Below are positions 5,095 through 42,253 of a DNA stretch of 50,265 bases, one piece after another (position 1 is the stretch's first letter; every line of letters begins with the position of its first letter). The notes under the pieces were generated by a model that saw only the letters and a program-made list of their open reading frames with translations, ran no database searches and was not told where the DNA came from. The position numbers and the translations under genes are program-made. The stretch covers positions 1 through 50,265 of the forward strand of contig CAZNVW010000001.1 of the NCBI GenBank assembly GCA_964576595.1. The letters run 5' to 3'. The DNA comes from an uncultured Verrucomicrobiales bacterium. Lineage in GTDB: Bacteria > Verrucomicrobiota > Verrucomicrobiia > Verrucomicrobiales > Akkermansiaceae.

Positions 5095-6030
5095 ATGAAA
5101 ATTGCCATTCTTGGAGCTGGCGCCATTGGCTGCTACTATGGATCTCGTCTGGCTCTTGCCGGAAACGATGTTTCCTTCATAATGCGGAGCGAGCGCGATT
5201 ATGTCGCACAGCATGGCCTCACTATCGAAAGCATTCTCGGCGACATGCGGCTGGAAAAAGTAAATGTCCCCTCTTCCTCCGAAGAGGTCGGCCCGGTCGA
5301 TCTTGTCGTCATCACCTGGAAGACTACTTCCAACGTCAACCTCAGCAAGAGTCTGCCCCCGCTCCTCGGCCCCGATACCAAAGTCCTGACACTGGAAAAC
5401 GGCATGGGCAATGCGGAAGAAATCGCCAAGGTCGTCCCCCAGGATAAAATTTTTTGCGGAGTCTGCTTCATCAGCGCCTTCCGTACCGGCCCCGGCCATG
5501 TCAAGCACATGGCGAATGGAGCCATCTCCATGACTCCCGCCTTTTCCGATCCCGCGCTCATTCCGGCGACGGAAGAGATCGCGGCTGTTTTCAAGGCGGC
5601 CGGCATCCCCGCCCGGGTTTATCCCAATGCGGAGTGCGTCATGTGGAACAAGGTTATCTGGAACGTTCCCTTCAACGGTCTCAGCATTATCAATGACGGC
5701 GCCGACGTGCTGGAGATCCTCAATGCGCCCGGCGGTGAAGATCACGTCCGCCGCATCATGCAGGAGGTCGTCAACGCCGCTCACGCCCGCGGCCATGATC
5801 TCCGTCCGGACATTATCGAAAAGCAGATCGAAGTCACTTACGCCATGGGGCACTACCGCCCCTCCAGCGGCATCGACTTCATGGCCAATCGTCCTGTCGA
5901 ATTCGAGTCCATCTGGAAAACCCCGTTCGAACTGGCCAAAAACGCCGGAGCCGACCTGCCCGAATGGGAAAAGCTGAACGCCCAACTGGCCGCCAAGCTG
6001 GCGGAAAGAGACGCCCGGAACCGGGCCTGA
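5095..6030 (+). CDS. panE: 2-dehydropantoate 2-reductase (ketopantoate reductase, ApbA/PanE family)
   Basis: Starts MKIAILGAGAIGCYYGSRLALAGNDV (Rossmann GxGxxG). Length and the C-terminal ApbA-like region fit. The ATG at 5095 is preferred over the TTG-extended ORF from 4984. Confidence 0.85.
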   Translation: MKIAILGAGAIGCYYGSRLALAGNDVSFIMRSERDYVAQHGLTIESILGDMRLEKVNVPSSSEEVGPVDLVVITWKTTSNVNLSKSLPPLLGPDTKVLTLENGMGNAEEIAKVVPQDKIFCGVCFISAFRTGPGHVKHMANGAISMTPAFSDPALIPATEEIAAVFKAAGIPARVYPNAECVMWNKVIWNVPFNGLSIINDGADVLEILNAPGGEDHVRRIMQEVVNAAHARGHDLRPDIIEKQIEVTYAMGHYRPSSGIDFMANRPVEFESIWKTPFELAKNAGADLPEWEKLNAQLAAKLAERDARNRA

Positions 6031-6062
6031 GCGGCCGTAGCCCGTGGCATCCCCGCCTGTCG

Positions 6063-6995
6063 ATGATTCGATCCCTGATCGTCGCCTGTCTTGTCCTTCT
6101 CCTGGGAGGCGTGTTCCTGCGCCCCCTTGCTGAGGATATACAAGACAGGGAGCGGCAGATGGGGCTTCTTCCCCCGGTGCTGGCCCTCGGCGACGAATCA
6201 GGCCCCAGGCTGGAGCAGCAGCTTTCTTTCGTCGCTCTGGGAGGGTTGCGCTCTCTTGTGGCGGCGTTTCTCTCCCTCAATGCGTACGAGCATTTTTCCA
6301 ACCGCAACTGGCCGGCTCTGGAAAACCGCTATCGGCAGATTACCGCTCTGGCCCCGCAGAACAATTACTATTGGGACAACGGCGGCTGGCACCTTACCTA
6401 CAACGCCTCCAGCGACTCGCTGGAAGATACGAGTCTCCGGGATACGGAGCGTAAAATCCGCTTCAAGTCCTATATTAAAAAGGGGCGCGATTTTCTCCGG
6501 GAGGGGACCAAAAACAACCCCGGCGACTGGCTTCTGCACTCCCGCCTGGCCGACGCCCTGGCCGACAACAACCGCTTGCCGGACCACGAAGCCGCCATTC
6601 TGGAATACAGAAAAGCTCGCGAACTCGGCGGCCCCCTGAGCATGGAGCGGGCCGAGCTCTACTCCATGGCCTCCCTGCCTGCCCGGGAAAAAGACGCCTA
6701 CGATCTCGCGGTCAAGCTCTTCCAAAGCGCGCCGGAGAACAAGGTTCCCTCGATAGAATGCCTGATTTTCGCTCTGCAGAAGAAGCTGGATATTCCCCTC
6801 AAGGACAAGATCCCTCCCGACAAAATATTCTTCTCACCCAAAAGTGCGGCCTGGTCTCTGAAAAATTATTACAGGAGGCCAAACAACTTCCCCAAAAAAG
6901 GCATCCAAGAGGCGCTTGAAGTTCTCAAACCCTATCAAGACACAAAATCATGGGCCGATGTCCCCAATTCCGACTTGGAAGCTCTCCAACTTTGA
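6063..6995 (+). CDS. Hypothetical protein with N-terminal TM/signal segment, helical-repeat (TPR-like) character
   Basis: ATG at 6063 gives MIRSLIVACLVLLLGGVFL. The upstream part of the listed ORF overlaps the panE end and is Arg/Gly-rich. I recognise no family motif. Confidence 0.5.
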   Translation: MIRSLIVACLVLLLGGVFLRPLAEDIQDRERQMGLLPPVLALGDESGPRLEQQLSFVALGGLRSLVAAFLSLNAYEHFSNRNWPALENRYRQITALAPQNNYYWDNGGWHLTYNASSDSLEDTSLRDTERKIRFKSYIKKGRDFLREGTKNNPGDWLLHSRLADALADNNRLPDHEAAILEYRKARELGGPLSMERAELYSMASLPAREKDAYDLAVKLFQSAPENKVPSIECLIFALQKKLDIPLKDKIPPDKIFFSPKSAAWSLKNYYRRPNNFPKKGIQEALEVLKPYQDTKSWADVPNSDLEALQL

Positions 6996-7001
6996 GCTAG
7001 T

Positions 7002-7769
7002 ATGTCCCTCATCAGTCGATCCATGAAAAAAATCGCCATATTCGGAGACATACACGCCAATCTGGAGGCCCTGCACGCAGTGCTCGAGGACGCAGGGCGG
7101 CAGGGGTGTGAAAGCAATTACGCCTGTCTCGGCGATATTGTCGGCTATAATGCCAACCCGGCAGAGTGTCTGGAACTCGTCCGCAGTCTCGACTGCCCCA
7201 CCGTCAAGGGCAATCACGATTACGAGTCCATCAGCAAGAAGGATCTTCTCGGCATGAATCCCATCGCGACCATGGCTCTCAGCTGGACGCGCGAACAGCT
7301 CAACGAGGATCAAAAGACCTGGCTCCGCCGCCTGCCCTACGTCAAGGAGAACATCGCCTCTCTGGACAATATGACGATCGTTCACGCCACCATGGACAAT
7401 CCGATGAAGTGGGAGTACATCCTGAACGCTTCCGATTCCAGTTTCAGCTTCCAGAAGCAGGCGACTCAGCTTTGTTTTCATGGGCATACGCATGTCCCCA
7501 AATTTTTTGTCAAGTACCCGTCCGGCAAAATCTCCGACATCCCCGCGGATGAGATCATCATGGAGCCGGGCATACAATACTTCATCAATCCGGGCAGCGT
7601 CGGCCAGCCCCGCGATGGAGACTGGCGGGCCAGTTACGCCATTTATACCCCAGAGCAAAACCTGATCCAGCTCCGCAGGGTGGAGTATGATGTAGCGACG
7701 ACACAACTCAAAATCCGCGAGGCAGGACTCCCGGAAAGGCTGGCGGATCGTCTCGGCTTCGGCCGCTGA
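7002..7769 (+). CDS. Metallophosphoesterase (YfcE/MJ0936-like)
   Basis: Calcineurin-like phosphoesterase motifs IAIFGDIHAN, CLGDIVGY, GNHD and FHGHTH. An alternative start is at 7023. Confidence 0.85.
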   Translation: MSLISRSMKKIAIFGDIHANLEALHAVLEDAGRQGCESNYACLGDIVGYNANPAECLELVRSLDCPTVKGNHDYESISKKDLLGMNPIATMALSWTREQLNEDQKTWLRRLPYVKENIASLDNMTIVHATMDNPMKWEYILNASDSSFSFQKQATQLCFHGHTHVPKFFVKYPSGKISDIPADEIIMEPGIQYFINPGSVGQPRDGDWRASYAIYTPEQNLIQLRRVEYDVATTQLKIREAGLPERLADRLGFGR

Positions 7770-7795
7770 CCCGCTCAAGCCGCCCTTTCGTTGTC

Positions 7796-9700
7796 ATGGC
7801 GCGTATTCCCGAAGATACTATTCGCAAAATTCTGGAGGCTACGGATATCGTCGCGCTCATTGGCTCGTATATTCCGCTTAAAAAAGCCGGTACTATTTAC
7901 AAGGGGTGCTGCCCCTTTCATAACGAAAAAACGCCGTCATTCACCGTCAGCGCAAGCCGCCAGTCCTTCAAATGTTTCGGTTGCGGCGAAGGGGGAAGCG
8001 CAATCGGCTTCGTCATGAAGTACGAGAATCTCTCTTTTGGAGATACCGTGCGCAAACTGGCTGACAAGGCCGCCATCTTCGTCGAGGAGGAGGCCTATGA
8101 TCCCCGCGCGGACCGGGAGCGGAAACGCCGCCTCCGGCTGATTGATTTGCACAAGGCCGCCGCCGAGTGGTACCACAGGCAGCTCATGACCGCCGCGGCC
8201 GCCTGTCATGCCCGCGATTATCTGAAAGGGCGGGGGTACGGCTCCGACATGGCAAAAAACTGGCAGGTGGGCTGGGCGCCCGGCGACTCGGCCGCTTTCC
8301 TCGCATGGGCAAAGGGCAAGGGGTTCACCGGGAGGGAGCTGCTTGACTCGGGACTGTGTTTCCTGAAACAGGAAAACAACCCCCGCTCGGGATTGATGTG
8401 CCGTTTCCGGGACAGGCTGATGTTTCCCATCTCCAACGATTACGGCGAAATAGTCGCCTTTTCCGGGCGTATTCTGGAGGCGAAGGCCAACACCGGGAAA
8501 TATATCAACTCGCCGGAAACGGCCCTTTTCCGCAAGGGCAATGTCGTCTTTGCCCTCAATCGCGCCCGGAGGGGCATTGCCAAGCAGCAAACCGCCCTGA
8601 TCTGCGAAGGCCAGCTTGATGTAATCGCCTGTCACGAGGCTGGGGTCGTCCATGCCGTCGCCCCTCTTGGTACCGCATTTACCAGCAGCCACGCCCGGCT
8701 CATGCGCCGCTACACGACCAGGGTCACGCTCTGCTTCGACGGCGACAGCGCGGGGATGAAGGCGGCGGACAGAGCCTTTCGCGAGCTTGCGCCGGAGGGG
8801 TTGTACATAGATCTGGCCTCTTTGCCTGCAGGCGATGACCCCGACTCGTTTTTAAAACGGGAGGGCGCGGAAGGGTTCCGCCAGTTTCTGGCCGGAGCCA
8901 GGCCTTTTTTCGAAGCCCGCCTGCAGAGGGCCCAGGCCGAGGGAGTCCTTTCCGATCCCTCCCGCCGTTCCGAATTTATCGGAGATCTCTCCGCCCTGAT
9001 CGCCCTGATCCCGGACAAGGTTTATCAGGATGGCGTTATTACAGATGTCGCCACGCTATTGAGAATAGGCCTCCCCGATCTTCGCAAGGAAGTAAAGAAC
9101 GCCGCCGGAAGTATCGCCGAGCAAAAAAAGCGGGAATCCGAGCGCAGCGTCTCCTTCGCCCGGGCAAGCCGGGAAAACCCCGCACCTTACGACGATGCTT
9201 CCTACACGGGAGAAGAACCGTCCGAAACATGGCAGCAGGACACATCCGCCCCCCTCCCCCTCCCCCCTCCCCGCCTGATTGCCCTCGACCGCCCCGTTTA
9301 CCAGCTCTGCGAGCTGTGCCTGCAATTCTCCAGTATCCAGCACATTCTTCTGCAAAGGATTGAAGATATTGTGGAGCCTCTGGAGCATCTCCGGGGCGGC
9401 CACCTACTAAGGAGGATACTCTCCTCCCAGCCCAACCCCGACAACCCGTCCGAGATCCAGGCGTTTCTGGAGTCCCTCCCTCCCTCCGAAGCCTTCACCC
9501 TGCGCCGGATGGAGTGCAGCAATCCCCAGCCAAATGATCCGGAGGCAATCGTTCTGGAGCTTATTTCCGCGCTCTCCCAGCTCTCCCTGCAAAAGCAGAG
9601 GGATTCGGTGATCGCCTCCCTGATGAAGCCGGATCTTTCCGCCGAAGAAAAGCAACGTCTCCTTGACAGGTTGAAGGCGCTGGGGGAATTACTGCCGTGA
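7796..9700 (+). CDS. dnaG: DNA primase DnaG
   Basis: CHC2 zinc finger (CCPFHNEKTPSFTV...FKCFGCGEGG), TOPRIM region (LICEGQLDVI, CFDGDSAG) and a long C-terminal helical domain. Confidence 0.93.
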   Translation: MARIPEDTIRKILEATDIVALIGSYIPLKKAGTIYKGCCPFHNEKTPSFTVSASRQSFKCFGCGEGGSAIGFVMKYENLSFGDTVRKLADKAAIFVEEEAYDPRADRERKRRLRLIDLHKAAAEWYHRQLMTAAAACHARDYLKGRGYGSDMAKNWQVGWAPGDSAAFLAWAKGKGFTGRELLDSGLCFLKQENNPRSGLMCRFRDRLMFPISNDYGEIVAFSGRILEAKANTGKYINSPETALFRKGNVVFALNRARRGIAKQQTALICEGQLDVIACHEAGVVHAVAPLGTAFTSSHARLMRRYTTRVTLCFDGDSAGMKAADRAFRELAPEGLYIDLASLPAGDDPDSFLKREGAEGFRQFLAGARPFFEARLQRAQAEGVLSDPSRRSEFIGDLSALIALIPDKVYQDGVITDVATLLRIGLPDLRKEVKNAAGSIAEQKKRESERSVSFARASRENPAPYDDASYTGEEPSETWQQDTSAPLPLPPPRLIALDRPVYQLCELCLQFSSIQHILLQRIEDIVEPLEHLRGGHLLRRILSSQPNPDNPSEIQAFLESLPPSEAFTLRRMECSNPQPNDPEAIVLELISALSQLSLQKQRDSVIASLMKPDLSAEEKQRLLDRLKALGELLP

Positions 9701-35023: not shown

Positions 35024-35977
35024 ATGCCCGCCCTGCCCGTCTTTTTCCGCCCGGTCGTGTTTCCCCGTATCTGGGGAGGCCGCGATCTGGAAAAACGCTT
35101 TCACCGCCCCCTGCCCGACGACGGACAGGCCTATGGAGAGTCGTGGGAAATCTCCGACCGCCCGGAGCTGTCAAGCGAGGTCATCTCGGGAGAGTTCTCC
35201 GGTGTGACGCTGCATGATCTCTGGACCGGAAAACGCGAGGAACTCTTTGGCCGCGGTTATGAGCGCTTTGACCGCTTCCCCCTCCTCTGCAAAATTCTGG
35301 ATGCGAAAGACAAACTCTCCATACAAGTTCACCCGCCCGCCTCTGCCGCGCCGGCTCTCGGCGGAGAGCCCAAAACGGAAATCTGGTATATCGCCGAGGC
35401 GGCTCCCGGAGCCATCCTGTACTCAGGATGGAAACAGGAAACCACCCGCGAAGAAGTGGAGCAGGCCGTCCGGTCTGGCAGCCTGGAATCCCTGATTCAC
35501 ACCATATGCCCGGCGAGAGGAGAGTCCCTGTTCATCCCCAGCGGGCGCATCCATGCCATTGGCGCGGGACTGCAAATTTTTGAGATTCAGGAAAACAGCG
35601 ACACGACCTATCGCCTGTACGACTGGAACCGGACGGACGATCAAGGGCGCCCGAGGGAGCTCCACGTCAGCCAGTCCCTGCAAAGCATCCATCTCGACGA
35701 CATCCGCCCCCAGGCCCGCCCGGCGGAACCGGGCACCCTGGCCGACACGCCCGAGTTCCGGCTGGAAGAAATTCTTCTGAAAAAAGGCGATCTCCTCACC
35801 CAGCAGGACCCGGAACATTTTGCCCTGGCCGTAGTTGCGGAAGGCACTCTGGATTTTGGCGAAGGAGTTATCGCTCAAAGCGGCGACTTCTTCCTGCTGC
35901 CCCGGCAGGCCGCCGGAGGCGTCTCCCGCGCGGGAGACAGCAAAGTCCTGTACTGCACCGTTCCCGTCCGGGACTGA
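35024..35977 (+). CDS. manA: Mannose-6-phosphate isomerase, class I
   Basis: VWGG..., GESWEIS, FPLLCKILDAKDKLSIQVHP and SGRIHAIG, consistent with type I PMI of the cupin fold. Confidence 0.85.
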   Translation: MPALPVFFRPVVFPRIWGGRDLEKRFHRPLPDDGQAYGESWEISDRPELSSEVISGEFSGVTLHDLWTGKREELFGRGYERFDRFPLLCKILDAKDKLSIQVHPPASAAPALGGEPKTEIWYIAEAAPGAILYSGWKQETTREEVEQAVRSGSLESLIHTICPARGESLFIPSGRIHAIGAGLQIFEIQENSDTTYRLYDWNRTDDQGRPRELHVSQSLQSIHLDDIRPQARPAEPGTLADTPEFRLEEILLKKGDLLTQQDPEHFALAVVAEGTLDFGEGVIAQSGDFFLLPRQAAGGVSRAGDSKVLYCTVPVRD

Positions 35978-35992
35978 CCGCCTCCCATTATT

Positions 35993-37066
35993 ATGCCGGA
36001 CTCCCTCCTATCCCTCACCCCAGAAGAGCTGACTGCCGCAGTCAAAGATCTGGGGCAGCCCGCCTTCCGGGCCAAGCAGATTCTGGAATGGGTCTGGAAA
36101 AAGCGCGTCTCCTCCTGGGACGAGATGCACAATGTCCCCGCCGCCCTGAGGAATGCCCTCGCCGAGCGTTACGTCCTCCGCACCCTGGCTCATGTCCAGA
36201 CGCAGGCGCAGGAATACGGGGGGACGCGAAAATTCCTCTACAGGCTGGATGACGGCCGCTATATCGAGTCCGTCCTGCTTCCGGCTTCCCAGGCCCTGTT
36301 TGGAGAAGACTCCGACCGCCAGACCCTGTGCGTCTCATCGCAAGTAGGCTGCGCCTTTGGCTGCCGCTTCTGCGCCTCCGGTCTGAACGGTTTTACCCGT
36401 GACCTGCGCGCGGATGAAATCGTCGAGCAAGTACTCCAGGCAGAGGCTCTCAGCGGGCAGAGGGTCAACAATCTTGTCTTCATGGGCATGGGCGAACCTC
36501 TCGCCAACTGGGACAACTTCACCCGCGCGCTGGATGCCATCAACGCGCCCTGGGGCCTTACGATCGGAGCCAGACATCTGACTCTCTCCTCCTCGGGCCA
36601 CGCTCCCCACATCCGCCGGCTGGCCGACGATCCCCGGCAAATCCGGCTCGCCATTTCCCTGCACGGAGCCACCAATGAAGTACGGGAGCAAATCATGCCC
36701 GTCAATAAAAAGTGGCCTCTGGAAACCCTGTTTGACGCGCTCGATTACTGGACGTCCCAGAAGAAGCAGATGATTACCTTTGAGTACATCCTGATCGACG
36801 GAGTCAACAACAGCCCGGAGCAAATGCGCCTGCTGGCCGCCCATGCCCGCCGCTTTCACGCCAAGGTCAACCTCATCCCCTACAATACGGTGGACGGCCT
36901 CCCCTGGAAACGCCCCTCAGAATCCGACTGCTACCAGTTCCGCGACGGTCTCATTCAGGCTGGCGTCTCCGTCACCATGCGAATGGAAAAGGGCGGCGAA
37001 ATTGACGCGGCCTGCGGCCAGCTGCGGCTCAAAAAGGAAACCGAGGAAGGTCTCATCGCCCCCTGA
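35993..37066 (+). CDS. rlmN: 23S rRNA/tRNA (adenine-C2)-methyltransferase RlmN (radical SAM)
   Basis: FRAKQILEWVW, CVSSQVGCAFGCRFCASG, NLVFMGMGEPLAN and the C-terminal AACGQL. Confidence 0.93.
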   Translation: MPDSLLSLTPEELTAAVKDLGQPAFRAKQILEWVWKKRVSSWDEMHNVPAALRNALAERYVLRTLAHVQTQAQEYGGTRKFLYRLDDGRYIESVLLPASQALFGEDSDRQTLCVSSQVGCAFGCRFCASGLNGFTRDLRADEIVEQVLQAEALSGQRVNNLVFMGMGEPLANWDNFTRALDAINAPWGLTIGARHLTLSSSGHAPHIRRLADDPRQIRLAISLHGATNEVREQIMPVNKKWPLETLFDALDYWTSQKKQMITFEYILIDGVNNSPEQMRLLAAHARRFHAKVNLIPYNTVDGLPWKRPSESDCYQFRDGLIQAGVSVTMRMEKGGEIDAACGQLRLKKETEEGLIAP

Positions 37067-37153
37067 TTTCTCAAATAAAAAAAAGATTTAAGACTTTTAA
37101 ATTCAAAATTTTTCTTGAACTTATTCAAAAATAAGTTATTTAGAAAAAATAAC

Positions 37154-37651
37154 ATGTTTCGTATTATTTTTACGTTAATCATCCTTACTCTTGTACTCAT
37201 ATGGCCCACAGTCCAAGCCCAAGAAGAAAATCAGGATCAATGCCGCATTGATTTTGTCGCTGTCATTTATGGAAGCCCACTTGGCGAAAAATCTATAGAA
37301 ATCAAAGGAGCAGAAGCCGCCTTAAAACAAGCGACTAAATTAATTGCCAATGAACTTATCAAACAAATAGTAAAAAAAGCAAGTAATATTCTTGATATGG
37401 CAGGAAACCTTTCTACCTCCAGATTTGCTCATCATGTCAATATTATCTACGCTTATCGCTTTATTCACAAAGGAAAGCCCACTAGCGAATGGCAATTACA
37501 CTCGCAAAATAAACTTTTATCTCAAGCTGGTACAGACTACTTTTTTTCTTTATCTGAATCCAAGGAAAAAGCTCTAGATAGAATCGCCAAATTAGAAGAA
37601 GAACTCAATACACAACTCGAAAGTCAGTGTGAAGAACACAATAATCCTTAA
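37154..37651 (+). CDS. Hypothetical secreted protein (about 165 aa), low-GC cassette gene 1
   Basis: ATG at 37154 gives MFRIIFTLIILTLVLIWPTVQA/QEE (signal peptide). The C-terminus is coiled-coil-like (KEKALDRIAKLEEELNTQLE). No family recognised. Confidence 0.55.
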   Translation: MFRIIFTLIILTLVLIWPTVQAQEENQDQCRIDFVAVIYGSPLGEKSIEIKGAEAALKQATKLIANELIKQIVKKASNILDMAGNLSTSRFAHHVNIIYAYRFIHKGKPTSEWQLHSQNKLLSQAGTDYFFSLSESKEKALDRIAKLEEELNTQLESQCEEHNNP

Positions 37652-37668
37652 TTAACTATATCATAAAT

Positions 37669-38094
37669 ATGAATCATACATTAATAGCAAATTCAGTTCT
37701 TGTAGCACTTTTCTTTACTTTTCCGGTAGTTTTGTCTAATGAAATTTCTACTGTAAAACGACAGAAATGTGCAGATACAGAACTTGGATTGTCCAGTACC
37801 CATCCAATAGTCATCACTGAAAAATCCATAGAAAAAGCTGAAAATTTTGCTAAAAAACACATTAAGGAAAACTATCCTGAATATAAAATTAAAGCCATAT
37901 GTATGATGGATAACATGAATAATGGACATTCCACACAAACATATACTCTACAAAAAACGGATAAAGATAATCCCGAAAACAAAAAAACAGTAAAACTTTA
38001 CTTTGATGTAGAAATTGCTATGTCTGAATTCAGAAAAAAGAACGCAAAGGAAATACAAGAACGATTAAAAAAGATAGAAATCATACAACAATAA
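37669..38094 (+). CDS. Hypothetical secreted protein (141 aa), low-GC cassette gene 2
   Basis: MNHTLIANSVLVALFFTFPVVLS/NE is a signal peptide. The gene starts 17 nt after gene 1. No family recognised. Confidence 0.55.
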   Translation: MNHTLIANSVLVALFFTFPVVLSNEISTVKRQKCADTELGLSSTHPIVITEKSIEKAENFAKKHIKENYPEYKIKAICMMDNMNNGHSTQTYTLQKTDKDNPENKKTVKLYFDVEIAMSEFRKKNAKEIQERLKKIEIIQQ

Positions 38095-38109
38095 AAATAG
38101 CAAAAAAGA

Positions 38110-39906
38110 ATGATAAAAATCTTCAGAAAAAATAGAATAAAATTCATATTTTTTTCTTTATTAATTTCTCTACTCACATTCACAGAAACTGCCAAAGCAG
38201 GCTTTGAATCAAATTTAACTTCTGTTTGTTCTACAGGAAATCCAAAAAAGATATCAGATTTCTGCTTTAAATATGTTTATCGTGATGTTCAGAAAAAAAG
38301 GCCAGACAAAAATAGTATTGAGAAATTTACCGCAGATAAAAATTTGCAGCTGGCTTGCTGGATGGGTCTTTATTTTAACTCCATCAAATGGAAGGGAATA
38401 TTTGCCGGAAGTGGATTAAAAGACAGAGAATTCATGCAATGGGTCATTGCGCACCCTGATATTTTTGAAAAGTTCTTATTCGCCAATCAACCAAATTCTA
38501 ATTCGTTTGATTTTCTCTATTTCCTCTGGTCAAAAGAAGGAAAAGAATTTCATCCTCCTTTATTGAATCTGGCTTTAGGGGCCGCACTGTGTTTAAATAT
38601 TTTATCTCAAGAAGAATGCGTAGCTCGATATAATTTTTACAAAAATTCATTCCTAGCACAAAAATTGTTTCTCCAATTCTCTACTTTAGAACCATGGGAG
38701 TATATATTGCTTCTAAAAGATACTGAATCAGTTGCAGGAGGGATCGAAACATTAGCATGGGGGCAAGCATATCTACTAGAAAAAAAGCAACATATTAATG
38801 AAATAAATGCAGCAAGCAAAGTGTGTGGGTTAATTCCCTACAGGAATATAAACGAAAGAGGCATTAGCATACATTCTGGCCTTGCTTTCTATGACAACAA
38901 ACAAACAACCCTTCAAATTTACACAACATACGGAGGTGTGTGCGGAGCTGTGTCCAAAGCTGCCTGTGGATTTTTAAAGTCCAGAGGAATTCCTTGTTAT
39001 ACTATAGGTCAGCCGGGACATTGTGCATTTATATGGAAACGAGCTGACGGAAGTTGGACTATTGGCAATAATATCTACGGATGGGCTTGGTCTAATGGTA
39101 ATCCACAGCTTCCTTGGAAAGGATCAACTTCTATTATAAAATCTATTTCGCAATTCAACGGATTGGAAGCCAAACGTTCCAACCTGTGTATGTATTTGTC
39201 AGAATTCTTACCTAATACCAACGAATCTATATTTTTTTTGGAACAGGCAATTGAATTTTACCCCAGTAACTACCGTGCTTGGAAATTATGGTTATCCACG
39301 CAAGTTAAACAAGCTAGTGAAATAAAGAAAAAAGATCTTGCCATTAAAATAAGGGGAAATTTCAAAAATGATCCCTTCATTGTTTCTGATCTTATTGATA
39401 GCCTTGTTCCTTTTAATTGGAAAAATACCAGTCCTTATGAAATTTATGCCCTTTTGTTGGATGAAAATGAATCTCCTGATTCAAACTCTCTCTACATGAA
39501 AAAAATATGGGATTTTGTTCGTGTTGATATCCCTGAACTTAAACTTTCTTATAACGAAAAAAATAAAAATATTTTTTTCAAATCCTGGAAGACTTATTAT
39601 AAAGACAATAATGTATCATTGAAAACAAAACGGCAAACTTGTTATGTTTTTCAAAAAATATTAATAGGACTTACGCAAAACGAAAAAACATATTCAAATT
39701 TTATAGAAACATATGAAGAAATTCTTAATATTTGGAATAATAAAGAACTAATGAGAGATGCCGATAAATTCATTCGATCACAATTAAACAATAACCAGCC
39801 TCTCTCTATTAGAAAAAAACTAATAAAATTCGGCATGCTCCTCACAGAAACACTCGAAGACATGAGAGGGAAAAAATTTTATATCGAAAAAAATCAGAAA
39901 ATTTAA
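38110..39906 (+). CDS. Secreted transglutaminase/PNGase-like cysteine-protease-fold protein with C-terminal helical (TPR-like) repeats
   Basis: Signal peptide MIKIFRKNRIKFIFFSLLISLLTFTETAKA. The core YGGVCGAVSKAACGFLKSRGIPCYTIGQPGHCAFIWKRADGSWTIGNN fits the G-x-C...GIP...H-x-x-x-W...W-x-x-G-D/N pattern of the transglutaminase-like core. The C-terminus includes FFLEQAIEFYPSNYRAWKLW. Confidence 0.6.
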   Translation: MIKIFRKNRIKFIFFSLLISLLTFTETAKAGFESNLTSVCSTGNPKKISDFCFKYVYRDVQKKRPDKNSIEKFTADKNLQLACWMGLYFNSIKWKGIFAGSGLKDREFMQWVIAHPDIFEKFLFANQPNSNSFDFLYFLWSKEGKEFHPPLLNLALGAALCLNILSQEECVARYNFYKNSFLAQKLFLQFSTLEPWEYILLLKDTESVAGGIETLAWGQAYLLEKKQHINEINAASKVCGLIPYRNINERGISIHSGLAFYDNKQTTLQIYTTYGGVCGAVSKAACGFLKSRGIPCYTIGQPGHCAFIWKRADGSWTIGNNIYGWAWSNGNPQLPWKGSTSIIKSISQFNGLEAKRSNLCMYLSEFLPNTNESIFFLEQAIEFYPSNYRAWKLWLSTQVKQASEIKKKDLAIKIRGNFKNDPFIVSDLIDSLVPFNWKNTSPYEIYALLLDENESPDSNSLYMKKIWDFVRVDIPELKLSYNEKNKNIFFKSWKTYYKDNNVSLKTKRQTCYVFQKILIGLTQNEKTYSNFIETYEEILNIWNNKELMRDADKFIRSQLNNNQPLSIRKKLIKFGMLLTETLEDMRGKKFYIEKNQKI

Positions 39907-40099
39907 TCTAAGAACATCTCAAACATTGAATCAAAAAATGCCTCACTGTTCCCGGTATCCTCAATAAGCCCCAATAGGCGGCATTCCGGTCAGGTTCGCC
40001 CTGTTTCCAGTCTTCCGGCTGTTTTTCCCTCCCGGAAATTATTTTTTGCAAGATTACTCCGGAAAGAGGCGTATGTTATATGTTAATTCATTTGAATCC

Positions 40100-42253
40100 A
40101 TGTCCTTTTTCTACTCCTTTCGTCCTTCAAGACATTCCACCGTTTTTTCTTCTCTGCTTTGCGGTATTGCGGGCGTTGCCCTGTCCCTTGCCCCGTCCCG
40201 GGCTGCCGCTGATGCAGTCTATCCTCCCGTTCCCAACAAGGCCCAGCTGAACTGGCAGGACATGGAGATGTATTCTTTTGTCCACTTCACGACCAATACT
40301 TTTACAGACAAGGAGTGGGGGTTTGGAGACGAGTCTCCCGACATGTTCAATCCGACGGATTACAATCCCGATCAAATTGTCAAAACGCTTGCGGACGCAG
40401 GTTTCAAGGGAGTCGTGCTGACCTGCAAACACCACGACGGCTTCTGTCTCTGGCCTACCAAAACCACCAAACACAGCGTCGCCTCGTCCTCCTGGAAAAA
40501 CGGCAAGGGCGATGTCGTCCGGGACTTCGCCAACGCCTGTAAAAAATACAATGTCAAATTCGGCGTCTACGTCTCCCCCTGGGACCGCAACCACCCCGAT
40601 TACGGTACACCGAAATATCTGGAGGTTTACAGACAGCAGCTCAAGGAGCTGCTGACCAACTACGGCCCCATATTCATGACCTGGCACGACGGAGCCAACG
40701 GCGGAGACGGCTACTATGGCGGCAAGAACGAAAAACGATCCATTGACCGGAGTACCTACTACGACTGGGCAAACACCTGGAAGGGCGTCAAGAAATACCA
40801 GCCGGGAGCCGTTATTTTTTCCGATGTCGGCCCGGATGTCCGCTGGGTAGGCAATGAGCACGGGGAGGCAGGCTACCCCTGCTGGGCCACTTACACCCCC
40901 CGCAGCAACAATCCCGCCTCTCCCACTCCCGCACCGGGGGTCGTGCATTATCAGGAGGGGCAAAACGGCACGGTTGACGGAAAATTCTGGATTCCGGCGG
41001 AGGTGGACGTCTCCATCAGACCGGGCTGGTTCTGGCACGCCTCGGAAAATGCAAAGGTCCGCACGCCGGAAAATCTTCTCAAACTCTACTTTGACAGTGT
41101 CGGCCGGGGAGCCGGACTCAATCTCAATGTGCCGCCCGACAGAAGGGGCCGAATTCATGAAGCCGACCAGGCGTCGCTAAAGGAGTTTGCCCGCCTCATC
41201 CGCGAGCTGTATTCCCGAAACTACGCGGAGGGAGCCTCCGTCACCAGCAGCGACGGGAAACAGGGGAGCAAGCCCGCCCGCATTCTCGACCGCAAACGCA
41301 CCTCCTACTGGATCGCAAAAGACGGCATGAAAAAAGCCGAGCTCCTGATTACCCTGCCGGAGAAAAGGAGTTTCGACGTGCTGCGTCTGGCGGAGCCCAC
41401 CCAGCTGGGGCAGAGAGTCCGCAAATTCTCCGTTCAATACAAGACGGACGCCGGGTGGCAGCCCTGGATCTCGGGCAGCAGCGTAGGCGCGCGCGTCATT
41501 CTGCAAGGGCCGATGATCACGACAGACCAGCTCCGCCTCTCCATTGACGAGGCCGCCGCCCCGCCCGCCCTCAGTGAGTTCTCCCTGTGGAAAAAACCGG
41601 TAATTCTTGCCGCGCCTGCCATCAGGGCCTCCCGTGAAGGCATGGTGACCCTTTCCGGCAGAGACGGGTTAAATGTCTTCTATACGCTGGACGGCTCGGA
41701 GCCGACGCAAAGCTCCACCGCCTATGCCGGAGCCTTCTCCCTGCCCCACGGAGGCACCGTCAAGGCCGTCGCCTACAGGGAAAGCTCGCCCTCGGCGGTG
41801 ACGACGGCCCAGATTCCCGTCCCGACCATCTCGTGGAAAGTCACCCGGGCGGAAGGCTCCGCCTCCGACCCCATGCGAATGATCGACGGCGATCCCTCTA
41901 CGCTCTGGCATACGCATGGGGAGCAGGAAATCGCCCCGCCCCAGACCGTTGATCTGGATATGGGCAGGGATACGCTGGTCTCCAAAGTCCTCTACACCCC
42001 CCGCAAGGACGGCAATACCAAGGGGATCGTCTCCCGGTACGAAGTTTATCTGAGCCGGAACGGGCAGGACTGGAACAAGGCCGCAGAAGGAGAATTCTCC
42101 AACATCAAGGCCAACCCGATCACGCAGGAGATCCTCCTGCCTGCGCCGCAATCCGCCCGCTATCTAAGATTTGTCGCCAAAGACGTCGTAGATGGACATC
42201 ATGTGAGTATCGCGGAGCTGGGGGTCGTCGAACCCCTGCCGGAAAAGAAATAA
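40100..42253 (+). CDS. Alpha-L-fucosidase (GH29) with C-terminal F5/8 type C (discoidin/CBM32-like) domains
   Basis: Signal peptide MSFFYSF...LAPSRAAADA. GH29 core segments are QLNWQDMEMYSFVHFTTNTF, GFKGVVLTCKHHDGFCLWPT and MTWHDGANGG. Discoidin-like segments include MRMIDGDPSTLWHT. Confidence 0.88.
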   Translation: MSFFYSFRPSRHSTVFSSLLCGIAGVALSLAPSRAAADAVYPPVPNKAQLNWQDMEMYSFVHFTTNTFTDKEWGFGDESPDMFNPTDYNPDQIVKTLADAGFKGVVLTCKHHDGFCLWPTKTTKHSVASSSWKNGKGDVVRDFANACKKYNVKFGVYVSPWDRNHPDYGTPKYLEVYRQQLKELLTNYGPIFMTWHDGANGGDGYYGGKNEKRSIDRSTYYDWANTWKGVKKYQPGAVIFSDVGPDVRWVGNEHGEAGYPCWATYTPRSNNPASPTPAPGVVHYQEGQNGTVDGKFWIPAEVDVSIRPGWFWHASENAKVRTPENLLKLYFDSVGRGAGLNLNVPPDRRGRIHEADQASLKEFARLIRELYSRNYAEGASVTSSDGKQGSKPARILDRKRTSYWIAKDGMKKAELLITLPEKRSFDVLRLAEPTQLGQRVRKFSVQYKTDAGWQPWISGSSVGARVILQGPMITTDQLRLSIDEAAAPPALSEFSLWKKPVILAAPAIRASREGMVTLSGRDGLNVFYTLDGSEPTQSSTAYAGAFSLPHGGTVKAVAYRESSPSAVTTAQIPVPTISWKVTRAEGSASDPMRMIDGDPSTLWHTHGEQEIAPPQTVDLDMGRDTLVSKVLYTPRKDGNTKGIVSRYEVYLSRNGQDWNKAAEGEFSNIKANPITQEILLPAPQSARYLRFVAKDVVDGHHVSIAELGVVEPLPEKK

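Follow-up and report, generated by a model that had tools for sequence, protein, structure and literature searches.

An AT-rich cassette of three predicted secreted proteins in an Akkermansiaceae genome: a possible laterally exchanged operon with a transglutaminase-like core

The DNA analysed here, referred to throughout as the window, spans 50,265 nt (positions 1 to 50,265 of contig CAZNVW010000001.1, assembly GCA_964576595.1) from an uncultured Verrucomicrobiales bacterium of the family Akkermansiaceae. At positions 37067-39940, between the stop codon of rlmN (35993-37066), which lies directly upstream, and the upstream region of a GH29 fucosidase gene, it carries an AT-rich cassette of three genes, here called ORF1, ORF2 and ORF3. 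The explanation that we favour, and to which we give roughly even credence, is that this is a laterally exchanged three-gene operon encoding an exported, glycoprotein-directed cysteine hydrolase (ORF3) and two accessory proteins (ORF1 and ORF2). We infer lateral acquisition from the composition of the cassette, from its variable position and from incongruent similarities among its modules, each of which is laid out below.

A Sharply Bounded Cassette of Predicted Exported Proteins

The compositional break is pronounced. GC content is 0.323 in the cassette as against 0.582 in the rest of the window, where all other stretches of 2.9 kb are at 0.51 or above. Averaged over 200 nt, it is 0.54-0.63 up to 36900 but only 0.33 by 37100, remains within 0.24-0.44 as far as 39900, regains 0.52-0.53 by 40100-40500 and then runs at 0.55-0.63. 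The genes themselves have an overall GC of 0.36 (ORF1), 0.30 (ORF2) and 0.33 (ORF3), and at third codon positions (GC3) the contrast is stronger still, with 0.28, 0.22 and 0.28 compared with 0.70-0.80 in nine other genes of the window. The tetranucleotide profile of the cassette lies at an L1 distance of 0.836, some 20 standard deviations above the background of 0.197 +/- 0.031 obtained for the other 2.9-kb stretches. Composition and codon usage are both deviant and the borders are sharp, in the manner of a genomic island. An earlier note on this DNA, which had estimated a sharp GC shift at both edges by hand and proposed sliding GC, tetranucleotide and codon profiles as a check, was right on this point: 200-nt GC, GC3 and tetranucleotide distance all show a strong deviation from the flanks.

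All three genes lie on the forward strand and are separated by gaps of only 17 and 15 nt, as had been noted earlier, and they look like one operon of exported proteins. ORF1 occupies 37154-37651 when read from its ATG (165 aa); the longest frame begins at a TTG (37115-37651), and both the homologs and the gene call in the contig L084 favour the ATG. ORF2 (37669-38094) encodes 141 aa and ORF3 (38110-39906) 598 aa. Each N-terminus shows the n/h/c layout of a Sec signal peptide with an AxA-like cleavage motif, and the hydrophobic N-termini are kept in alignments of the homologs of ORF1, ORF2 and ORF3, so that the signal peptides and cleavage motifs quoted in the earlier note stand, as judged by inspection and by this conservation. 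None of the three N-termini contains a lipobox. For ORF3 the predicted signal peptide comprises residues 1-30 (38110-38199, forward strand), with cleavage after TAKA, and the structural model places there a lone helix (residues 2-27) and a low-confidence linker (24-29). Export of all three proteins is therefore a prediction from their N-termini.

Variable Position and Exchanged Partners

Outside the window, the trio was recovered at five different chromosomal positions in six contigs (comparison contigs are given as L-numbers). It lies between NrdR and LepA in L086, between an aldolase and an ABC transporter in L085, between hisG and a block of histidine kinase, response regulator and ilvD genes (the HK/RR/ilvD block) in L008, and directly upstream of the same block in L004 and L018; in L003 it has a TPR protein upstream and FtsK downstream, beyond one gene of 277 aa. 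Counting the order ORF3-ORF1-ORF2 as well, the association is present in 11 loci besides the window, and the pair is always ordered ORF1 then ORF2, directly upstream or downstream of an ORF3-family gene. The genes are thus neither universal at this locus nor, as shown below, members of characterised families.

The modules of the cassette do not share one pattern of similarity. In identity matrices ORF3 of the window groups with L003, L086 and L085 (51-60% identity), whereas ORF1 and ORF2 group with L004 and L018 (57-59% and 48-49%) and not with L003 and L086 (29-31% and 18-27%). Between L008 and L006 the ORF3 proteins are 96% identical, in contrast to 34% for ORF1 and 31% for ORF2, and the ORF1/ORF2 pairs lie on opposite sides of ORF3. 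Beside the HK/RR/ilvD block, in which ilvD is 96-100% identical, ORF3 is found with one of three partner sets: a RegProp-like protein of 785-824 aa together with proteins of 489 and 469 aa, ORF1-ORF2 upstream of ORF3, or ORF1-ORF2 downstream of it. Phylogenetic incongruence is evident from these data, as read from identity matrices.

Across hosts, GC content is 0.29-0.45 in ORF1 and ORF2, 0.33-0.51 in ORF3 and 0.50-0.59 in the flanks. Within the clade to which ORF3 of the window belongs it ranges from 0.33 (window) to 0.50 (L085), a spread that fits different residence times with the window copy as the least ameliorated. The source is likely to be an AT-rich accessory gene pool circulating within the Akkermansiaceae rather than low-GC gut taxa of the Firmicutes type, because the ORF3 family is multi-copy in Akkermansia and ORF1 and ORF2 are seen only in Akkermansia-type contigs, in which the earlier note had proposed to look for the trio. 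The view taken there of the cassette as a candidate for acquisition is supported, in that composition is extreme, position variable and module similarity incongruent, but has to be qualified, as these genes are at home elsewhere in the lineage.

In many Akkermansia genomes the partner of the ORF3-family gene is not ORF1 and ORF2 but a large exported protein, 785-844 aa in length (L001/L002, 2609-7952; L007, L011, L013, L016, L017 and L020). This partner carries a faint two-component-regulator-propeller (Reg_prop) signature. A. biwaensis has the additional proteins of 489 and 469 aa, the former with a C...H...D-like motif near its C-terminus.

A Putative Catalytic Core in ORF3

More than 170 homologs of ORF3 were found in a collection of 5.8 billion proteins, nearly all from Akkermansia, about 42% identical and annotated as hypothetical; the named ones all belong to A. 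muciniphila, A. biwaensis or Akkermansia sp. Their alignment contains an invariant block, YGGVCGAVS...GQPGHCA..W...IGN. In the AlphaFold2 model (pLDDT 85.8, pTM 0.81) the signal helix is followed by a helical domain in the N-terminal part, a small alpha/beta core and, towards the C-terminus, a helical solenoid resembling TPR/HAT repeats. Helical repeats make up about two thirds of the structure, and weak matches to TPR, PPTA and HAT repeats were obtained from the sequence.

On conservation and the model, we place a putative catalytic core at residues 240-335 (38827-39114, forward strand). Within it, Cys278 (codon 38941-38943) opens a helix (278-291), His304 (39019-39021) opens a strand (304-310), and Asn320 (39067-39069) stands just past the strand 316-319. 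Among 61 relatives only 17-24% identical to ORF3, the residues Y244, G275, C278, G293, Q301, H304 and A306 are invariant and N320 is conserved in at least 90%, often trailed by an Asp. Model and alignment thus both show a conserved Cys that opens a helix and then, on successive strands, a His and an Asp/Asn, and in the model this Cys-His-Asn arrangement is the canonical geometry of papain/transglutaminase-like enzymes. The invariance of Cys278 and His304 at less than 25% identity is typical of an active site. In agreement with this, 17 of the 61 distant relatives match Pfam Transglut_core (PF01841) at E<=1, the best at 6.9e-6, and for two of ten members inspected singly the match has 15-16 bits and covers profile positions 42-81. 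We consider ORF3 a remote and unconfirmed member of the transglutaminase-like superfamily, for which catalysis and substrate are proposed from these patterns.

Searches against Pfam, NCBIfam, PADLOC (defence) and PHROGs (phage) gave no significant match for ORF1, ORF2 or ORF3, and the sequence and profile searches that had been proposed yielded no characterised family for any of them, nor did Foldseek for ORF3. The earlier note had been unable to place two of the three proteins; with respect to curated families this extends to all three, whereas ORF3 can be connected, remotely, to transglutaminase-like or papain-like enzymes.

The Small Partner Proteins ORF1 and ORF2

The two small proteins are far rarer, with four homologs of ORF1 and nothing beyond ORF2 itself in the 5.8-billion-protein collection; comparison of the fetched loci, pairwise and by hidden Markov model (HMM), revealed relatives in Akkermansia-type contigs only. 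In the ORF1 alignment Cys30 and Cys159, which lie near the two ends of the mature protein, are invariant, as is His105, and a disulfide probably joins the two ends. The ORF1 profile had no match in the PDB. Members of the ORF2 family share a conserved pattern of a helix followed by strands, in some relatives as a tandem two-domain version. Against the PDB, the ORF2 profile weakly matched 3due (E=0.039, about 40 residues), a putative periplasmic protein that we take to be of the PepSY-like DUF2874; none of 10 ORF2-family members matched Pfam PepSY, and ORF2 is possibly PepSY-like. We regard both proteins as putative small, fast-evolving secreted partners.

ORF2-like domains occur as tandem two-domain proteins, and as extra or orphan copies unaccompanied by ORF1, in L006 (10380-11057), L008 (6978-7685), L009 (7414-7842), L011 (13379-15133) and L015 (3916-4389), the HMM identifying those in L009, L011 and L015 as orphans. 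All of them lie in AT-rich dips.

The Wider ORF3 Family and Its Glycan Context

When 1.84 billion cluster representatives were searched exhaustively by HMM, 764 relatives of ORF3 were obtained, most of which share just profile positions ~100-420, so that the portion conserved across the wider family is the core and not the C-terminal solenoid. Genome scans found two to three ORF3-family paralogs in each of six Akkermansia-type assemblies, and distantly related proteins in Bacillus, Clostridium, Planctomycetota and Verrucomicrobiota other than Akkermansia. The copy of A. biwaensis/muciniphila was present in 2652 blocks of the public collection (>1000 contigs).

In the distant relatives the core shares the polypeptide with modules of the CBM32, CBM51, mucin-binding, galectin and cell-wall-anchor types. 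F5/8 type C domains occur in 19 of the 61 relatives, and longer ones also carry NPCBM, Mucin_bdg, galectin, ricin, CBM5/12, FIVAR, SLH, CWB2 and choline-binding repeats. Since the fusion partners of the core are glycan- or mucin-binding, we suggest extracellular glycoproteins or mucins as targets of the family. A GH29 fucosidase adjoins an ORF3-family member both in the window and in L016, and its presence in at least two lineages is consistent with such targets. In L016, from an uncultured Akkermansia sp., the fucosidase is 59% identical to that of the window and lies directly upstream of the ORF3-family gene (5409-9647).

The catalytic-looking core is unannotated everywhere it was seen. For relatives on conjugative megaplasmids of the Bacillus cereus group and on Enterococcus plasmids the annotation says no more than "discoidin domain-containing" or "putative mucin/carbohydrate-binding domain-containing", and a search of the literature for a characterised transglutaminase-like, CBM32 or mucin enzyme of this type produced nothing relevant. 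Two loci illustrate the setting of these relatives. On the B. thuringiensis plasmid NZ_CP097258.1 (L167, 5728-7989) the core relative stands beside a Tn3 transposase and a second mucin-binding-domain protein, and in C. perfringens (L067, 7635-10136) it is part of an 833-aa CBM32 protein annotated by its carbohydrate-binding module alone.

Junctions, Close Strains and the Surrounding Locus

At the 5' junction, GC falls within about 10 nt of the rlmN stop (37066), and an AT-rich leader or promoter region extends over 37067-37153, with an A8 tract at 37077-37084. A sigma-70-like match at 37139-37167 is expected by chance, and the scans for promoters and terminators did no better than shuffled sequences. 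At the 3' junction a short AT-rich tail follows the ORF3 stop (39907-39950), with GC rising to host values by ~40100. Further downstream, in DNA of host composition, a terminator-like hairpin followed by a T-run (40008-40030, forward strand) is a consensus match alone, of a kind found no more often than expected from shuffles; it could be the terminator of the cassette, or a former rlmN terminator moved by the insertion. The Rfam scan gave one sub-threshold chance match and no family.

Other contigs of the same species were limited to L084 and L168, and the cassette is present in both. L168 (SRR26056155) is 99.66% identical to the window over 11 kb, and its three indels all fall within the cassette. 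One extends the A6 tract in codons 6-8 of ORF3 (38127-38132, forward strand) to A7, leading to a TAG at codon 9, and the corresponding gene call of 514 aa (P0001) lacks the signal peptide; the others, in the leader, shorten the A8 tract to A7 and insert 2 nt at 37116-37117. These indels could be phase variation, pseudogenisation or assembly error. Homopolymers kept near the 5' end would have pointed to phase variation, but this idea was rejected, as A6 and T7 tracts are common near the starts of the homologs but are not conserved in position.

The site was compared by a metagenome scan with RlmN, the best matches of which are at most 63% identical. Gut Akkermansia-like contigs are syntenic with the window through ftsY and rlmN, and downstream of rlmN no window gene was matched. 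In the comparison of the rlmN-fucosidase junction called for by the earlier note, synteny stops at rlmN, the junction was seen nowhere else in the data scanned, and no empty site could be defined. The best RlmN matches in the JGI metagenomes (63%) come apparently from mostly environmental contigs (marine, freshwater), the gut Akkermansia-like proteins are 58-59% identical with shared gene order, and the GTDB species representatives contained no relative of ORF3 above 43% identity; the host lineage is poorly sampled. In this lineage ftsY and rlmN are separated by a gene (35024-35977) whose GC is normal and whose product resembles type I phosphomannose isomerases, whereas the two genes are directly adjacent in the gut Akkermansia-like contigs L155, L161, L162 and L164.

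A phage origin was also considered and rejected, given that ORF1-3 had no match in PHROGs and that no relatives were found in the IMG/VR viral contigs (a scan made without ORF1).

Discussion

If the favoured explanation is correct, the operon would have been drawn from an AT-rich accessory gene pool exchanged among the Akkermansiaceae. The genes belong to families that occur only within the recipient's own family or have expanded there, which points to exchange by homologous recombination within the Akkermansiaceae rather than to import from a distant donor. ORF3 would be a transglutaminase-like (papain-like) cysteine hydrolase in which Cys278 acts as nucleophile, His304 as general base and Asn320 orients the His, and the helical domains flanking the core would hold a polypeptide or glycopeptide substrate. 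The likeliest chemistry would be cleavage of a peptide or amide bond, and the likeliest substrate class an extracellular glycoprotein, which for this organism would mean mucin. ORF1 and ORF2 may form an exchangeable module that regulates, inhibits or chaperones ORF3 or sets its specificity.

A number of observations weigh against this explanation, with respect both to transfer and to function. Neither mobility machinery nor insertion scars were found: the tRNA scan of the window was empty, at the edges the search for direct or inverted repeats yielded only AT matches of low complexity, and no integrase and no donor genome or vector came to light, much as the earlier note had observed for integrase, transposase, tRNA and repeats. 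No empty rlmN-GH29 site was recovered, and the more distant contigs have other genes, and no GH29, downstream of rlmN. The family is endemic to the lineage, so that a high AT content could be a property of its own and need not point to transfer. As to function, ORF3 itself scores 12.7 bits against Transglut_core (E=0.16, residues 263-300), where Pfam sets its cutoff at 23 bits. A Foldseek search of the PDB with the complete model retrieved nothing at E<=0.001 (TPR proteins and menin at E 0.1-0.3), a model of the core in isolation (residues 225-348, 15 sequences) reached a pLDDT of only 56, making its matches meaningless, and sequence and profile searches of the PDB found nothing for the core, just noise from TPR and prenyltransferase repeats. 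The proposed fold is thus without confirmation from a solved structure or a curated family. ORF3 itself has no carbohydrate-binding module, and the functions suggested for ORF1 and ORF2 derive from linkage and one weak PDB match.

The absence of mobility genes, tRNA and repeats is what would be expected if the cassette were an old, vertically inherited Akkermansiaceae family, intrinsically AT-rich, for example because regulation or expression is under selection or because mutation is biased in secreted genes that evolve fast, and moved about by ordinary rearrangement. ORF3 homologs are indeed present in the sampled Akkermansia genomes, often in several copies, each family member in each host is AT-shifted relative to its flanks, and ORF1 and ORF2 have no relatives outside the Akkermansiaceae. 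We nevertheless consider vertical inheritance unlikely, as GC3 values of 0.22-0.28 next to 0.70-0.80, with edges sharp within tens of bases, would be hard to maintain in place, and a GC of 0.33-0.50 within one ORF3 clade is what different residence times would produce. The similarity orders of ORF1/ORF2 and ORF3 conflict, and near-identical ORF3 orthologs at one site with unrelated partners imply replacement events. Partner exchange also bears on the idea of an interbacterial toxin-immunity locus, in which ORF3 would be a secreted papain-like amidase or peptidase toxin (cf. the cell-wall amidases of the Tae/Tse1 type) and ORF1 and ORF2 periplasmic immunity proteins, with orphan immunity genes at other places in the genome. 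Small, hypervariable exported proteins in tight linkage with a Cys-His enzyme, now upstream and now downstream of it, would suit such a locus, as would the orphan ORF2-like copies in L009, L011 and L015, the low GC, the several paralogs per genome and the swapped modules; yet ORF3 at 96% identity beside ORF1 and ORF2 at 31-34% shows no co-variation, the opposite of cognate pairs. The signal is an ordinary Sec signal, no Rhs, PAAR, LXG, CdiA or other delivery domain was detected in ORF1-3, and the relatives are fused to host-glycan- or mucin-binding modules rather than to peptidoglycan-binding or delivery domains, for which reasons we judge a toxin-immunity function quite improbable.

Least probable of the explanations considered, in our view, is that ORF3 has no catalytic role and serves in the periplasm or at the surface as a scaffold or adhesin of the TPR type, with Cys and His in structural roles and ORF1 and ORF2 as ligands or cargo. 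Menin is such a scaffold, without catalytic function and with TPRs after a transglutaminase-like domain, and it is TPR proteins and menin that form the sole structural matches to a model that is about two thirds helical repeat, with weak TPR, PPTA and HAT matches in the sequence. A scaffold would leave unexplained why Cys278 and His304 are invariant, and Asn320 nearly so, at canonical positions in hundreds of proteins less than 25% identical, and the part conserved in the wider family is the core and not the solenoid.

Returning to the exchanged hydrolase operon, a bolder extension of it, which we offer tentatively and would not expect to hold in full, is that the cysteine hydrolases of the ORF3 family, be they peptidases, glycoamidases or transglutaminases, form an extracellular class not recognised before that acts on glycoproteins or mucins and is spread across Planctomycetota, Verrucomicrobiota and Firmicutes, with plasmids of the Bacillus cereus group and C. 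perfringens among the last. In the Akkermansiaceae, hypervariable and swapped ORF1/ORF2 pairs would tune or gate its activity, and slippage in the 5' poly-A tract may switch ORF3, together making up a diversifying system directed at host mucus.

Low-GC islets that encode hypothetical secreted proteins are, as such, nothing unusual. The interest of this one lies in a combination: a widespread, unannotated and catalytic-looking family associated with mucin- and glycan-binding modules, its expansion in a mucin degrader, the swapping of its partners, and a possible on/off frameshift at an A-tract. Akkermansia is the model gut mucin specialist, and its mucin-degrading enzymes have been catalogued in detail. 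If ORF3 is an enzyme, it would add a missing catalytic class to models of mucin breakdown, with a possible bearing on host-interaction factors of Bacillus and Clostridium. The swapping of partners beside a conserved putative enzyme, always in AT-rich DNA, offers a natural experiment in the strain-level diversification of a gut symbiont.

Comparison with Known Systems

With the known Akkermansia mucinases and carbohydrate-active enzymes (M60-like, OgpA-type and GH families) ORF1-3 share no Pfam or NCBIfam match. We also considered a link with the MUL1 locus, which we take to extend over Amuc_0543-0550, and with its product Mul1A, presumably a TPR protein. This candidate was rejected by comparison of neighbourhoods (and not of the Mul1A sequence), which differ, the ORF3 homolog of A. 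muciniphila/biwaensis lying between hisG and the HK/RR/ilvD block. Near MUL1, Amuc_0540 is MreB and Amuc_0546 a biopolymer transporter (PMC11480725), and mul1A is Amuc_0544 (PMC12570417).

Among cysteine enzymes, the bacterial transglutaminase-like cysteine proteases (BTLCP, e.g., LapG) and PF01841 proteins have the same order of Cys...His...Asn/Asp as ORF3, with the Cys at the start of a helix and the His and Asn on the strands after it, and ORF3 is predicted to be exported through Sec. It differs from them in that it scores below the Pfam cutoff and recovers no solved transglutaminase-like structure. Enzymes of the LapG type are small, consist of a single domain and function together with LapD and LapA, whereas the core of ORF3 is set between large helical domains and linked to ORF1 and ORF2. 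The peptide:N-glycanases (PNGase/Png1) have a Cys-His-Asp arrangement in the same superfamily and act on glycoproteins, the substrate class suggested for ORF3 by the carbohydrate-binding fusions of its relatives; PNGase is cytosolic and eukaryotic, and no match to ORF3 in sequence or structure was obtained. The small proteins recall staphopain-staphostatin and streptopain-Spi, in which one or more small proteins share an operon with a papain-like enzyme, and, given the weak 3due match of ORF2, possibly also inhibitory domains of the PepSY type. This is a functional analogy only, as no homology to staphostatins or Spi was found, and ORF1 and ORF2 are predicted to be exported and do not co-vary with ORF3.

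In domain context, the closest counterparts are the M60-like/enhancin mucinases and the CBM32/CBM51 glycoside hydrolases of C. perfringens and the Bacillus cereus group. The core of ORF3 is of the Cys-His type and not a zinc metalloprotease or glycoside hydrolase fold, with no match to a peptidase or glycoside hydrolase family in Pfam; the relatives of ORF3 nevertheless share with these enzymes the F5/8 type C, NPCBM, Mucin_bdg and FIVAR modules and the anchors, and occur in the same niches, including C. perfringens and the plasmids of B. thuringiensis/cereus. The cassette as a whole departs from typical horizontally acquired islets in having no integrase, transposase, tRNA target or direct repeats and in consisting of families confined to or expanded in one lineage. 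It resembles them in its sharp compositional break, its variable position, its incongruent modules and the accessory, secreted nature of the functions that it is predicted to encode.

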